Below are positions 53,401 through 59,400 of a DNA stretch of 64,000 nt, one piece after another. The stretch covers positions 2,356,001 through 2,420,000 of the forward strand of contig CAVNZM010000012.1 in NCBI GenBank assembly GCA_963693365.1, written 5' to 3'. Under the pieces are notes generated by a model, which worked only from the letters and a program-made list of their open reading frames with translations, ran no database searches and was not told the DNA's origin. The stretch comes from Amoebidium appalachense. Its lineage: Eukaryota; Protista; Ichthyosporea. Position 1 is the first letter of the stretch, and each line of letters starts with the position of its first letter. The position numbers and the translations under genes were made by a program.

Positions 53401-56400
53401 CACACACCCACACATATACCGTGGCGTTCACTCCTCTCACATACTCTCCATCATCACTAAAAAGATCAACACTCCCTAGTCCCCCACTCTATCCCGATCC
53501 CCCCTCCCCTCCCCCCTACCAGCCCCTACACCTCTCCCCCCCCCCCCCTCCCTCCCTCCCTCTCTCTCTCTCCCTCCTCTCTCTCTCCCTCTCCCTCTCC
53601 CTCCCTCCCTCCCTCTCTCTCTCTCTCTCTCTCTCTCTCTCTCTCTCTCTCTCTCTCTCTCTCTCTCTCTCTCTCTCTCTCTCTCTCTCTCTCTTTCTTT
53701 CTCTCTCTGTCTCCCTCTCTCTCTCTCTTTCGTTCTCTCTCGTTCTCTCCCTCCCTCTCTCTCTCTCCCTCTCCCCCCTCTCTCCCCCCTCCCCCCCCCC
53801 CCCCCCCCCCCCCCCCCTCTCTCCCCCCGCTCCTTTTCCCAAACCAATCCCCCGCCGTTCTTCTTTCTCAGCCGGCTAGGTTTTTGGGTTGCCTGGTAAG
53901 TTTTGAAATGGAGGTCTCGTCTCTGATCTGTCCACCACAGGATTTTTTTTTTTTTTTTGAATTCTTCTCCTCTCTCCCCCCCCCCCCCTTTCCCCCTCCC
54001 TCCCTCCCCTCCCTTCGCCCTTCGCCCTTCGCCCTTCCCCGGCCTACTCCTCCCCCCCCCCCCCCCTCCCCCCCCCCCTTCCCTTCCCCTCCTACCTTCT
54101 TTCCCCCCCCTTTCCCCCCCCCCCCCCCCCCCCCCCCGCCCAAACCCTGTATACACTCTTCTCATCAGCAGGTCTCTAACCCACTCTGCAGAACGTTTTA
54201 CGCATTTCTCCCCTTGGAGAACTTGGTCGTTGGTACGTTTTTGTCTGATATCCAACGACTCTGCAGGGTCCCCTGAGACTACTGACACTCTAGCATTCCC
54301 TCCCCTCTCTTACTTCACCCCCCAAGACCGCTTTACTTCCATGCAACCGGGCATGGTTGCTCTGTGTCGTGCATCTGTAAGCACATACGCATTTTCCGCT
54401 GCACTGAATTTGCACACACATATTAGCCGTTTCGCTCACCTTGCAAGCATAAGCAACCCTGCTCGTCTTTGATCAAGACGGGTTGACCCTCCCAAGTTCA
54501 GTTGATGCTGCTGTCTGAGTTGGAGAGTAGAGTCGTATATACGCGGGCTAAGGGGTCGAAACTCAGACGCAATTGATGACTTGGGCCCTCCCTCAGGATG
54601 GGCTCTGCTTATGACGCATACTGTGCGCATGGCTGATGTTGCATACTTGAATGTTTGCCTTTGCATGTGTCCTTCGTGTATGCGTACTTCGTACCGTGTT
54701 CCGCATTCAAACCCCCCCCCCCCCCCCCCCCCCCTTCCCCTCCTCCCCCTCCCATTTTCTCTGCACACTCAACAGGTCTTAACCAGCTCTGCACATCGTT
54801 AGTCACAATCTTCTCTCATATATGAGAGAATGATCGTATTGGTACGATTTGTCTATTATCTGACGATTCTGCAGCATCCCTAAGACCCCCTTTCCCCCTC
54901 CCCCCTCCCCCCCCCCCCCCCCCCTTTCTCTTTTTTTTTTTTTTTTTTTTTTTGGCGCCTGTTGTTTTGCTTGTCATTTGTTGTTCTGGTTGATTACCTG
55001 TAATCTTCGCTTATTTAGGTGTGTGTGTGTGTGTATGTATGTTGTGCGGGGTTGCACACACCGGTGTCTACTTTTCTTCCTACTGTTTTTCTCTCCACAC
55101 ACTTCATCTGTCCACTTCTGCATACCCCCTCTCATAGCTATAGACACACTTCACACATTGTGTTACGCGCACGCATGCACACACCACTCTGTTGGCGACA
55201 GCTCCCTTGGAATCCATGCGGCATGTTACCCGCCGGCGTAACATAACTCGGACTATCGATTTGGGTTTTTTCAAGCCCAAAGCAATGGGTGATACCATAT
55301 TTCCGGCTGACATCCGGGGGCATAGCTTTCCGTTCGAAGACGTTAAAGTTCCGCCCTAGTAAGCGTGTTACTACCCTGCGGCGTGGGTCAAATCTCATAT
55401 TTTCCCCTCTAATTGCGAATTCTGCGGCCTTCGGGACTTAATTCTTTTCAGCTGGTGTAGTATGTTAGCCAGGGAAGTATCAACTTAGGCAGCGACGGGG
55501 GAGCTTCCAAGAAGCCCCGTCTCCTGAGTTCCTATCTATATTTTTCTTGCTTCTACTTACTGCTGCAACTTTAACCCCCGGCCTTTCCCAATGCCCTTGC
55601 CTGCATAAGCAACCCTGCTCGTCTCTGATCAAGACGGGTGACCTACCCATGTTCAAGTGAAACAGTATCTGAGTTGGGTTTCGTGAACGAGGTGAATAGG
55701 TCGAAACTCGGGTACTGTGGATGACGTGGGCCCCCCCTGAGGATGGGCTCTGCTTATTATGCATACTCTTTATGTATGGCTTGCATTCTGCATCGTGTTA
55801 TCGTTTGTTCTTGTGTACTTCGTACTTTTTGACGCATTCAAACCCCCCCCCCCCCCCCCCCCCCCTCCCCCCTCCCCCCCTCACACACACACACACCCCA
55901 CCCCACCCCAACACATACACACATTTACACAAACATATACATGCACACACGTGCGCGCGCGCACACACACACACACCCAAGCTCACTCACGCTCACCCTC
56001 ACGCTCACACTCACTCTCACACTCGCACATAAATTTACACACACACACACACACGGTCACACGCCCTCTCCCTTCTGTCCGTCTCCCCTTACTTTTTTTT
56101 TTCGTTTTTTCGTTTTCAGCATGTGACCTTTACGGTATCCCTCAAGCTTCAGGCAAATACGAACACACCAAAATATCATTGTCAGTGATAATAAAATAAA
56201 AATTGAGCAAATGTTCTTCCTTTTGACACGGTTTATTGTGATGCACAGAAAACACGTTCTCCAACGTCACGGGCCTGCGTGTCAGTTGGCAGATCAAGGG
56301 CCCCGACCATGAAAACAAGCTGCACATTGTGCGCTTTACGGAAAACAATGTGGAGGCGGAACACGTGATCCACATGTTGGAAGCAGAGGTATATGCACCA

Positions 56401-59400
56401 CCTTTGAATTAGATATGGAAATATGGCTTGCTTGAGTGTATAGATGGTTGTGTGGCAGATAGGTTACAGGAGAAATTTCCAGTCGAACGCTTTTTAAGAG
56501 TAAGCATGGGCTCATGCGGTGGGAGGGAACGGAGGACGAATGAATCTACATACAACTAGTGGTATGATAAGAATGTCCATGACATGGATTCCACCGTCTC
56601 TCGTGACTCTACAAGCCATTGGCCTCTAAGAGTTAGGAAAGCTTAGGAGATACACGTTAACGGAAAACCAAACAGGACATTATATGGAAGATAGGGGGAG
56701 GAAAGAGGGGGAGGGGGGGGGGGGGGGGGGGGGGGGGAGGGGGAAGGGAGGGAGGGACTGAAGGCGGGCAGGAAGAGGGGGAAGAAGCACCTATTTGTCT
56801 ATTTGTCTGGCTTGCATATGCCTTCATGTGCATCCAGACGCCACAATGGTACAAACCACGCATACACTCGTACCTGGACGGCCGCGCGCGCGCGCACACA
56901 CACACACACACACACACACACACACACACACACACACACACACACACACACACACACACACATCACACATCACACACACACACACACACACACACACACA
57001 CACACACACACACACACACACACACACACACACACACCAACAGATTCAGACCAAGTAGTGCGCCCCTCTCCCCTCCCCCCTCCCCTCCCCTCCCCTCCGC
57101 CCCCACCACCACCACCACCACCATCACCACCACCACCACACACACACACATGCACACGAGCGCACACACACATACACAAACACCACAACACACATTCCAG
57201 CAACCGGATTGAAAAAAGAGATTGTATTAACACAGCAAGCATAGCCACACTTACCCACCCATTCCACTTTTTTCCCAGGGCCACCAGAGCACCAAGATTC
57301 TAGTCAAGGGGCAGGGCAACGGCACAGTCACCATTGTGGCCCAGCTGGCAGAGCCAGAGTACCAGGTGGGGGGTGGCTGCACTTCACGCTTGTTTGTCTG
57401 CTCTGTGTGTGGGTTATGCCATTGTTCCTATTTTGGTGTGTGTGTGTGTGTGTGTGTGTGTGTGTGTGTGTGTGTGTGTGTGTGTGTGTGTGTGTGTGTG
57501 TGGACCGAGGAGGGCACAGAGCAGGCGGAGGAGGGGGTTGGGTGGACGGGGGAGGGGGGGAGGGGAGAGAGAGGGGGGGGGGGGGGGGGGGGGGGGGGGC
57601 AGGGAATGGGTCGATGGGAGAAGGCAAAAGGGAGAGGGAGGGGGGGGGGGGGGGGGGGGATGGGTGAATGGGAGGAGGTTGTGGAGAAGGGCTGTGGGAC
57701 GGGGTGTGTTGAGTGGTTTTTGAGGTGGGGGTGGGCTGGATGGAGAGGGTGAAGGAGGATTTGGGGGGTAAGAGGGCTGTGTGAATATATGCTTCGCAGA
57801 GATTAGGAACCTCACGGGTACCTATGGTGCAGGGCCTAATTAGCAATTTGATGTGCATGTACGTCACGCAATTCAAGGGTATATGTGCAGTCGAACTAAG
57901 GTTGCTTCTCCTTAGTGTACTTTACATGAATATCCCCACACAATAGCCAATTCCCATGCTACCCACTATTCATACTTTACCCACTTACATATCTGTCCGT
58001 TGCAGAAAAACATTGAGACGCAGGCGGACTTCACGGTATATGACCCCTTTGAGGTTGTGCCTGTGGATGTGCAGCACGTACAGTCTGGGGGCTCCATGCA
58101 GTACCATCTGCTGAAGCGTGGCCAAAGTCGGCTCCCCCTCCCCCCTTTTCTCTGCTTGCAGATTTTGTAGACTCTGTGTTCTTAGATTGCTGCTCCTTGA
58201 ACAACCCTGCTCGTCTTTGGCCAAGACGGGCGGACTCGCCTATTGCTGTTGAAACAAAGTATGGGTTGGGAACCACACGCGAGAGGTTAAAGAGTCGAAA
58301 CCCATGCTTTTGTGGAGGCATAGGAACCCCCCTGATGATGGGCTCTGTTCAAGTGTCTTCTGCCTGCACGCTTAAATTGTTTGATTTTGGATTTCCCACC
58401 TTTGTGACGCTTTGTTGTTGCTCTTTGTTGTCTCCTCCATATTTCCAACCCTCCAACGCATACATCACCCCCCCCCCCCCCCCCCCCCCCCAAAAAAAAA
58501 AAAAAAGGAAAAAAAAAAAAAAAAAAAAAAACACTACCACCTCACCCCGTAGCCGTCCCTGCCGCCCCGTCCCGACTTCTACCCTACAAACCATCATCCC
58601 CCCCTCCCCCCCTCCCCCTGTCTCCACCACTCTCCGGCCTCCTCCTTCCTCGCTACTCGCTCCCGCACATAGCCTGCCCTACACACATTCACACACACAG
58701 GAAATCAAGCAGAGATGGCACGTATGCGGACGCCGCACACACACACACACAAACACGTGCACGCACGCTCGCATGTTTTCTCCCCCCCCACCCAGCCACC
58801 ACCACCACCACCACCACCGCCACAACACACACACTCTCTCTCATACCCACACAGAGAGAGGCACACAGAGACACACACAAACACCATGTATCCCTGCACA
58901 CTGATCCACTTTACGTCAAGCACACACACAAGCACACCACACCGTGTCACATGGACCTCTCCCCCCTCCCCAAACACACATACACACACACCATCCCACC
59001 CACACTAGAATCGTGCAAGCACACCATATATTGCTGCATGTCTTCTTACCATGTTTTTTGCATTCTGACCATTCCACGATCTTATGCAGATGTAGCCCTG
59101 CCAAGTGAGCAGTATAGCTGGACCCTTAATGGTGGGGACAGCTGCAAGAAGCACAAGATTGCAGACAATGGCCTGTTTGTGGCTGCTGTCGTCGACTCGG
59201 TTAATGAATGCTCATTTACCGTCACCGACAGATGTATCCACCCCCCCCCCCCCCCCCCCCCCCCCCCCCCGCGGGCTCTGCACTTGAGTATGTTTATCTT
59301 TTGGTAATCAAACACCCACACCCACATAAAGACATCAAACCACACATTAGCACACGCTGAAACGAAAGTAAACACGTGCGCGCATGTGTGTGCGCGTGCG

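Follow-up and report, generated by a model that had tools for sequence, protein, structure and literature searches.

A putative hammerhead ribozyme of SGC order with a split CUGANGA block, possibly active as an oligomer, in Amoebidium appalachense

Hammerhead ribozymes whose core blocks follow the order UH-GAAA-CUGANGA were described as type SGC by Eckert et al. (2023), who reported HRIMA-1 and SGC variants to be catalytic. Five SGC RNAs were validated, with rates of 0.007–0.19 per minute, and none was found in the genomes of known organisms (PMC10085705). These RNAs average 61–65 nt, come from metatranscriptomes only, and keep CUGANGA next to a stem II strand. That study assumed that CUGAnGA is never separated from its neighboring paired strands, and its descriptors demand CUGAUGAG or CUGAUGAUG. 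In its main text, "kink" and "k-turn" are absent, and "Penelope" and "dimer" appear in the references only (PMC10085705). Here we describe four copies of a candidate hammerhead of the same order in which CUGANGA is split from its stem II strand. They lie in a 64,000-nt stretch of the genome of the ichthyosporean Amoebidium appalachense (GCA_963693365.1, contig CAVNZM010000012.1, positions 2,356,001–2,420,000, forward strand; hereafter the window), which also holds a Penelope-like open reading frame (ORF).

Ribozymes are established in other Penelope-like elements. Minimal type I hammerheads of Penelope-like elements and non-LTR retrozymes have the circular C-G-S order and dimerize by swapping a weak stem III (PMC4209133; bioRxiv 10.64898/2026.07.22.740005). 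Those of Penelope-like elements are dimer-dependent and cleave poorly in vitro (PMC4209133). Canonical hammerheads were not detected in Naiads and most Chlamys, two Chlamys subclades being excepted, and Craig et al. (2021) listed unexplained 3' untranslated region motifs, with 10 "HHR_core" and 8 "HHR_half_core" rows; the main text and supplement of that survey include no Amoebidium or Ichthyosporea (PMC8557442). In the literature we covered, in which subscription journals were mostly not included, no split hammerhead and no rearranged hammerhead borne by a Naiad or Chlamys element was found.

Architecture of the four Amoebidium copies

The four copies, all on the plus strand, start at 34449, 54447, 55603, and 58196, where the initial annotation of this DNA had placed them. 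A covariance model built from these copies detected no fifth copy in the window, and a match at 1927–1937 on the minus strand was rejected as a copy. A full copy corresponds to an RNA of about 160 nt. Its 5' half runs from the 5' strand of a closing helix through a hairpin (P1), the stem II 5' strand beginning at G10.1, and the left strand of a long arm to U16.1-U17. The 3' half opens with the stem I 3' strand, which is followed by a small hairpin of variable sequence and by the stem II 3' strand with GAAA; then come the arm's right strand, the 5' strand of stem I, CUGANGA, and the 3' strand of the closing helix. The loop of the long hairpin, or head, contains UH, the stem I and stem II 3' strands, and GAAA. 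The junction at the other end, or tail, contains the 5' strands of both stems and CUGANGA, and the insert between A9 and G10.1 consists of the closing helix and P1. The C helix of the arm joins the distal ends of stems I and II. The block order is S-G-C, which is non-circular, and CUGANGA is separated from its stem II strand, which sits at the 5' end.

The copy at 55603..55757 has an intact CUGAGGA core and a predicted cut after 55675. Its P1 (55618..55638) carries the loop palindrome TGATCA at 55626–55631, a likely dimer contact. The stem II 5' strand (55640..55645, G10.1 being 55640) pairs with 55697–55702. The left strand of the long arm (55646..55674) comprises the C helix, a 3-nt bulge (55656–55658), tandem G.A pairs, and a helix continuing into stem III, and its partner is the right strand at 55706–55730. 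U16.1, U17, and the stem I 3' strand GGG occupy 55674..55678, with GGG pairing to CCC at 55734–55736. The C11.1-GAAA block is located at 55702..55706, and the CUGAGGA block (55737..55743) is followed by the closing helix 3' strand in place of stem II. The copy at 54447..54613 has the P1 palindrome TTGATCAA and a predicted cut after 54521. Its core reads CUCAGGA, and it had been called broken; the G5C change at 54594 proved private to this copy, as this position is G in >99% of the depth in 4/4 sequencing runs, and the copy is predicted to be inactive as a donor of the CUGANGA block. The diverged copy at 58196..58353 retains an intact CUGAUGA core, with the P1 palindrome TTGGCCAA and a predicted cut after 58267. 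The remaining copy (34447..34681, between two poly-C runs) is 5'-truncated, starting 2 nt before G10.1 (34449), and lacks P1 and the closing helix 5' strand, as described earlier; we additionally found an A.A mismatch in its stem III. Its predicted cut is after 34485. The core formed by CUGANGA, GAAA, and UH with G10.1-C11.1 and A15.1-U16.1 is complete in 3/4 copies, the fourth carrying the private G5C. Copy 54447 also has a 10-nt palindrome as its small hairpin between stems I and II (54533–54542), and so does copy 55603 (55681–55690) in its majority form, in which 55685 reads T (>99% of the depth of genomic contigs).

Stem II pairs as GACCCT/GGGGTC, GACCTA/TAGGTC, GACTC/GAGTC, or GACCC/GGGTC, and stem I as GGAG/CTCC or GGG/CCC. 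Both of these loop pairings, the closing helix, the CTCGTCT..AGACGGG hairpin (P1), and the predicted cut sites agree with the initial annotation. Its statement that the copies share little stem sequence was too strong, as copies 54447 and 34449 are 85% identical, the remaining comparisons give 68–76%, and the P1 stem and stem I are almost invariant across the window. The proposed covariation held. A four-copy MAFFT alignment had 95.7% of 162 cells paired, and both sides changed at 12/48 pairs, compared with 3.9 in shuffles and 0–3 with the partners slid. Stem II is under-counted in these figures because MAFFT shifts the 58196 strand by one column. Both-side changes were found at 5/11 pairs of the long arm and at three of the nine pairs of the C helix. 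Within stem II, three runs showed T55644>C and A55698>G at matching depths (14,452 vs 16,071; 38,361 vs 39,400; 1,423 vs 1,434), and a small fourth run did not (4 vs 168.5); these changes are unphased and partly derive from a sister subfamily.

A strict descriptor, with its core pattern widened to admit the CUCAGGA copy, matched 3/4 copies and gave 0 matches in 100 dinucleotide shuffles of the window. The 34449 copy was missed because of its stem III A.A mismatch. The words TCGAAAC and GATGGGCTCTG alone were not above chance frequency in the window. Single-sequence folding recovered the closing helix and P1 in 3/3 full copies. The long arm was present in the minimum-energy fold of two full copies and, for 54447, in the centroid only. 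Folding z-scores of the whole units were modest (–0.9, –2.6, and –2.5 for the three full copies).

The arm is interrupted by a kink-turn (k-turn) signature, consisting of a 3-nt bulge, G.A, A.G, and flanking helices, in 4/4 copies. As reported initially, copies 54447 and 34449 have U.U as the 3b.3n pair, and copies 55603 and 58196 have A.G. A standard k-turn is defined by a 3-nt bulge followed by G.A and A.G (PMC5061560), all of which the window copies have; their –1 pair is A-U or U-G, whereas the standard one is C-G (PMC5061560, PMC4382518). An A.G at 3b.3n is the best pair for ion-driven folding, and by analogy the k-turns of copies 55603 and 58196 should fold in Mg2+ alone (PMC4382518).

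The window copies and type SGC have in common the S-G-C order, the core, the link from stem I 3' to stem II 3', and a helix that connects the 5' strands of stems I and II at their distal ends (PMC10085705). In contrast to type SGC, the window copies have the block split by the closing helix and hairpin, are about 160 nt long, have their linkers paired into a k-turned arm, and belong to a high-copy eukaryotic repeat. The initial annotation was correct that the order UH-GAAA-CUGANGA is non-circular; this S-G-C order is already published, and what is new relative to it is the split block (PMC10085705). Type SGC has an uninterrupted block C, with the stem II strand 1–2 nt 3' of CUGANGA, and here that block is interrupted. 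Besides the split block, the host element and the probable dimer are new. The S-G-C order also separates these copies from Rfam types I/II/III, which combine the circular C-G-S order with a model match, and from non-LTR retrozymes, which combine tandem noncoding units, a type I hammerhead, and circular RNA, as the present hammerhead is not of type I. Unlike minimal type I hammerheads, the window copies have a long, intramolecular stem III and a non-circular order, and their intermolecular helices would likely be stems I and II. The Rfam comparison proposed earlier gave no hammerhead among 7 matches up to E 10 in 54140–58460, none among the matches listed for the window (150 of 179), and no k-turn family near the copies.

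Recurrence in related retroelements

Relatives were sought in 101 loci, namely the best 80 of at least 538 confirmed metagenome stretches, obtained with an alignment of 11 reverse transcriptases (RTs), and 21 genome-contig loci. Their best segments are 22–52% identical to the Amoebidium protein. Of the 66 metagenome loci that continue for 250 nt or more on the downstream side of the RT match, 13 were matched by a loose S-G-C descriptor, all in sense and 0 in antisense. A strict split descriptor, which places the G10.1 strand upstream of block S and was refined after the loose matches had been seen, matched 7/101 loci with 0 in antisense, and 3 matches occurred in 30 shuffled sets. The 7/101 is a floor, as many contigs end before the end of the element. 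Two loci (L061, L062) that pass the loose descriptor were not parseable into the split fold and are uncounted.

Five of the seven loci form one Naiad-like family (the L027 family, 70–100% identical to proteins P0026 or P0044), and L076 and L079 represent two further split-fold families. Motif and ORF share a contig in these loci; six motifs are found close to the contig end, downstream of the RT match by 1.1–1.7 kb, and the seventh is upstream of the ORF. While the stems drift, the window family and 7/7 relatives retain the catalytic positions CUGANGA, GAAA, and UH, with U, C, or A but no G at H. Covariation of stem II is strong in the L027 family, where it is paired in 30/30 cells with both-side changes at 5/6 pairs; over the whole structure, both-side changes occur at 14/61 pairs versus 5.8 in shuffles. 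A model of this family (R1) found only its own five sequences in 99 sources and did not match the window copies, which indicates that the families are alike in topology rather than in sequence. The relatives thus repeat the topology first proposed for the window, with the RNA ends in a helix between A9 and G10.1, and this supports the possible oligomer suggested with it. By eye, the seven relatives have no k-turn; a bulge or junction takes its place. The split arrangement covaries and recurs at Naiad/Chlamys-like elements.

Other searches returned little. A strict DNA pattern gave 0 matches in metagenome contigs, a loose pattern gave 8 in viral contigs, none of which passes the structural descriptor, and an L027-family pattern gave 0. 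The RT alignment yielded 21 candidates in viral contigs, of which 0 were confirmed. Among the 21 genome-contig loci, the strict scan gave no SGC-split match; a CSG-split scan matched L104 only, and a separate weak match, in antisense, was seen in L103. These 21 contigs (L089–L109) stand in prokaryote genome records and encode eukaryotic RTs of this kind, most likely as host DNA.

Further motifs were observed in these loci. In L104 (plus strand), identical hammerhead-like motifs at 779 and 5337 flank the ORF like pseudo-LTRs, in the order CUGAUGA, a 29-nt insert of two hairpins, a stem II strand, UH, and GAAA, which is a CSG-type opening with the same split. A second S-G-C family (L011 6689, L015 3796, L019 7410, L021 7498, L037 4634, L044 2078, L059 3825) lies 130–360 nt after the RT match, with a 7-bp stem III, a 5-bp stem I, and an A before GAAA. 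Its CUGAUGA is inside a hairpin loop, a TTCCGGAA palindrome often separates UH and GAAA, the stem II partner is ambiguous, and another CUGAGGA occurs about 170 nt further on. In L029, CUGACGA in a hairpin is repeated 300 nt apart (1544 and 1844) downstream of the RT, with no GAAA block placeable. Proteins P0026, P0035, P0044, and P0057 are Naiad-like with a C-terminal peptidase domain (PF00443), and the five-member ribozyme family belongs to this group.

Proposed assembly between copies and competing explanations

It is probable, as judged from sequence, that the motif is an active hammerhead of the split type. If so, the active unit is probably an oligomer, as the geometric model suggests. 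Taking both together, we favor, by a modest preference, a hammerhead of SGC order with CUGANGA split from stem II that would self-cleave after GUU when at least two copies assemble head to tail. Head and tail would dock through stems I and II to form an ordinary hammerhead core. The head of one copy would dock on the tail of another, producing a closed dimer or trimer with k-turns as corners; the dimer would be a parallelogram with two k-turn corners and the trimer a triangle.

The distance from k-turn to core is 16 stacked layers in 4/4 copies despite their divergence. Stem III stacks coaxially on stem II in the hammerhead (PMC4209133), and we adopted this stacking in a rough A-form model with an assumed rise of 2.8 Å per pair and three assumed core layers. 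The top of stem II then lies 67–70 Å from the k-turn, and the return helix of 8–9 bp covers 22–25 Å. For a monomer this leaves a gap of 42–45 Å at full fold-back and of 55–61 Å at 50–60 degrees, with a slack of about 13 Å; the k-turn angle is 50 degrees (PMC5061560). Since the gap is far above the slack, a monomer would need part of a covarying helix melted, whereas a head-to-tail dimer or trimer would not. From the excess length of the 16 layers and stem II over the return helix, we infer docking between copies.

The P1 loops provide a second line of evidence. Nine P1 hairpins lie directly 5' of G10.1, in three window copies, five L027-family members, and L079; 34449 and L076 have no such hairpin and were excluded. 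A Watson-Crick palindrome of at least 6 nt was centered in the predicted loop in 8/9 hairpins. Among 2,465 control hairpins, taken from these loci and from the window, 235 had one (9.5%; 14% for long loops). The central hexamers vary, with seven among the eight positives (TGATCA, TGGCCA, GGTACC, TCCGGA, GAGCTC, AGCGCT, and TATATA). The one miss, L034, has a GGATCC palindrome at the loop edge instead. An apex self-duplex test was also passed by 8/9 hairpins; this test is biased because the apex contains the closing pairs, and we relied on the control hairpins. A self-complementary loop too tight for self-pairing is the usual mark of an intermolecular contact. P1 loops with such palindromes would likely bring copies together, and they may act in nucleation or between rings.

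Several observations weigh against the head-to-tail assembly or the hammerhead itself. The geometry is arithmetic on an assumed rise and assumed core layers rather than a three-dimensional model, and melting of the arm at its k-turn end would defeat the argument. Nor does the palindrome occur throughout: L076 is without P1, the L104 inserts have none by eye, and L079 fails the self-duplex test, with 50% of shuffles equally good. Five of the nine hairpins come from one family. Stem I is short in the window (3–4 bp) and nearly invariant, and the descriptors were refined after matches had been seen. In copy 58196, the strand 3' of CUGANGA pairs slightly better with the stem II 3' strand (–7.1 kcal/mol) than the upstream strand does (–6.4 kcal/mol). 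The loose ends and joints listed for the repeat units in genomic data contain no pile of copies starting at the cut site. Published SGC RNAs with similarly tight links, whose directly joined helices seem too distant, nevertheless cleave during transcription, their oligomeric state not being given (PMC10085705). Finally, the shorter relatives (L027 family, L079), with a stem III of 4–5 bp and a joining helix of 8–9 bp, look borderline possible as monomers.

The last two points, together with the palindromes missing in some relatives, favor the strongest rival, in which the same split-SGC hammerhead works as a monomer. Its k-turn and distal arm would be open, or would represent an off or protein-binding state, freeing the strand for intramolecular docking. 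We consider this unlikely, though it is the most serious competitor. Opening the arm is difficult to reconcile with its both-side changes along its length and its constant 16 layers, and a monomer leaves unexplained why the loops stay palindromic through many sequences.

A less probable explanation retains the fold and gives up catalysis in vivo. The fold would then be a 3'-end structure bound by the RT or by L7Ae-family proteins, or a dimerization signal of the template RNA. K-turns are protein-binding sites (PMC5061560), minimal Penelope hammerheads cleave poorly in vitro (PMC4209133), and the short stem I fits as well. The retention of all catalytic positions in the window family and in 7/7 relatives, while the stems drift, makes a purely structural role improbable.

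Stem II could alternatively be formed by GGCUCU, which lies just 3' of CUGANGA and can pair with the stem II 3' strand at 5–6 of 6 positions in the window copies, best in 58196. The motif would then be an ordinary type SGC with a 2-nt insertion, and the upstream GACYY would be a competitor or switch. In the three other window copies, however, the energy of this pairing is –2.3 to –5.6 kcal/mol, compared with –7.3 to –9.4 kcal/mol for the upstream strand. GGCUCU is invariant while its partner changes, pairs mostly through G-U in these three copies, and overlaps the closing helix. In 6/7 relatives it has no counterpart, the best downstream register giving at most 2/6 pairs (4/6 in L076), whereas the upstream strand, which covaries, is placed 5' of block S in 7/7 relatives as it is in the window. 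These results support the split and leave the ordinary type SGC very improbable, although a competing downstream stem II fold is possible in the window family. Chance pattern-matching in a repeat family, suggested by only four related window copies and descriptors fitted afterwards, has a negligible probability, being largely refuted by the L027-family covariation and the split-descriptor scan (7 sense vs 0 antisense matches in relatives without shared sequence, and 0.1 per shuffled set), as well as by the lack of matches in 100 window shuffles.

Host element, repeat units, and significance

The Penelope-like ORF in the window (51072..53479, plus strand) is probably of Chlamys type; it is 5'-truncated and spread over three frames. 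It contains CxC, DKA, and the RT and is without the N-terminal GIY-YIG. ORF fragments in 51018–53479 are 96–97% identical to expressed proteins of the ichthyosporean Amoebidium parasiticum in EukProt. An intact relative (P0001), 97% identical to the RT part, has a GIY-YIG at residues 27–79 (E 3e-4, just below the Pfam cut-off), with CxC and DKA seen in its sequence and a C-terminal RT, consistent with the Naiad/Chlamys design. Naiad/Chlamys elements and this element have in common the N-terminal GIY-YIG, CxC, DKA, C-terminal RT, and (C)n insertion (PMC8557442). Two features favor Chlamys over Naiad, namely a GIY-YIG core without paired cysteines and the use of (C)n targets. In a quick RT tree of 86 homologues, built without named references, P0001 fell in a separate 11-member clade with long branches.

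Two of the ribozyme copies were traced to high-copy repeat units on the plus strand that end at poly-C runs. The unit bearing copy 54447 spans 54325..54706, and 54140–54706 matched 4,090 and 8,737 contigs in two DNA runs. The unit bearing copy 55603 spans 55490..55843, with an approximate 5' edge, and 55480–55845 matched 5,779 and 7,455 contigs, again in two DNA runs; contig counts and depth over these units are not copy numbers. The initial annotation had assigned the ribozyme to the 3' end of the Penelope-like element. Copy 54447 does lie 970 nt downstream of the ORF stop; poly-C interrupts this link. In other genomic copies, poly-C follows 54323 and the sequence upstream of 54325 differs, with loose ends at 54323/54325. 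Based on this result, the ribozyme units may have inserted into (C)n behind the ORF, as truncated or non-autonomous units, and would then not be the 3' end of the ORF itself. A junction from 54668 back to 54339 was seen in one contig of a presumed RNA run; tandem units and a circle of 330 nt or more would explain it equally well.

Two segments, 54156–54272 and 54759–54880, are 71% identical, and each precedes a ribozyme unit. They have a shared fold frame, with CTGCA/TGCAG and CGTT/AACG helices around inner hairpins, and no Rfam match. One of them contains a perfect 20-nt palindrome (54811–54830). Since other genomic copies end in poly-C after 54323, these segments may form a structured 3' end, belonging either to another repeat or to the element with the ORF.

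By analogy, the split hammerhead would cut tandem (pseudo-LTR) or read-through transcripts into unit-length RNA only with two copies present. Dimeric minimal hammerheads in other Penelope-like elements have been proposed to work by such two-copy logic (PMC4209133). A broader and more tentative proposal, drawn from the model, is that a self-assembling ring, with k-turn corners, palindromic nucleation, and a closed dimer or triangular trimer, may be the missing ribozyme of Naiad and Chlamys elements from ichthyosporeans to animals, serving as a two-copy coincidence detector. If borne out, the split hammerhead would overturn the assumption that CUGANGA is inseparable from stem II (PMC10085705) and the assumption that Naiad and Chlamys elements are mostly without a hammerhead (PMC8557442). 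As far as the literature found allows us to say, it would provide the first genomic setting, in a culturable host, for non-circularly permuted ribozymes. A site between A9 and G10.1 that tolerates whole helices would be a new handle for ribozyme engineering, and the Amoebidium family would offer a natural ribozyme on which activity as an oligomer of defined geometry could be tested directly.

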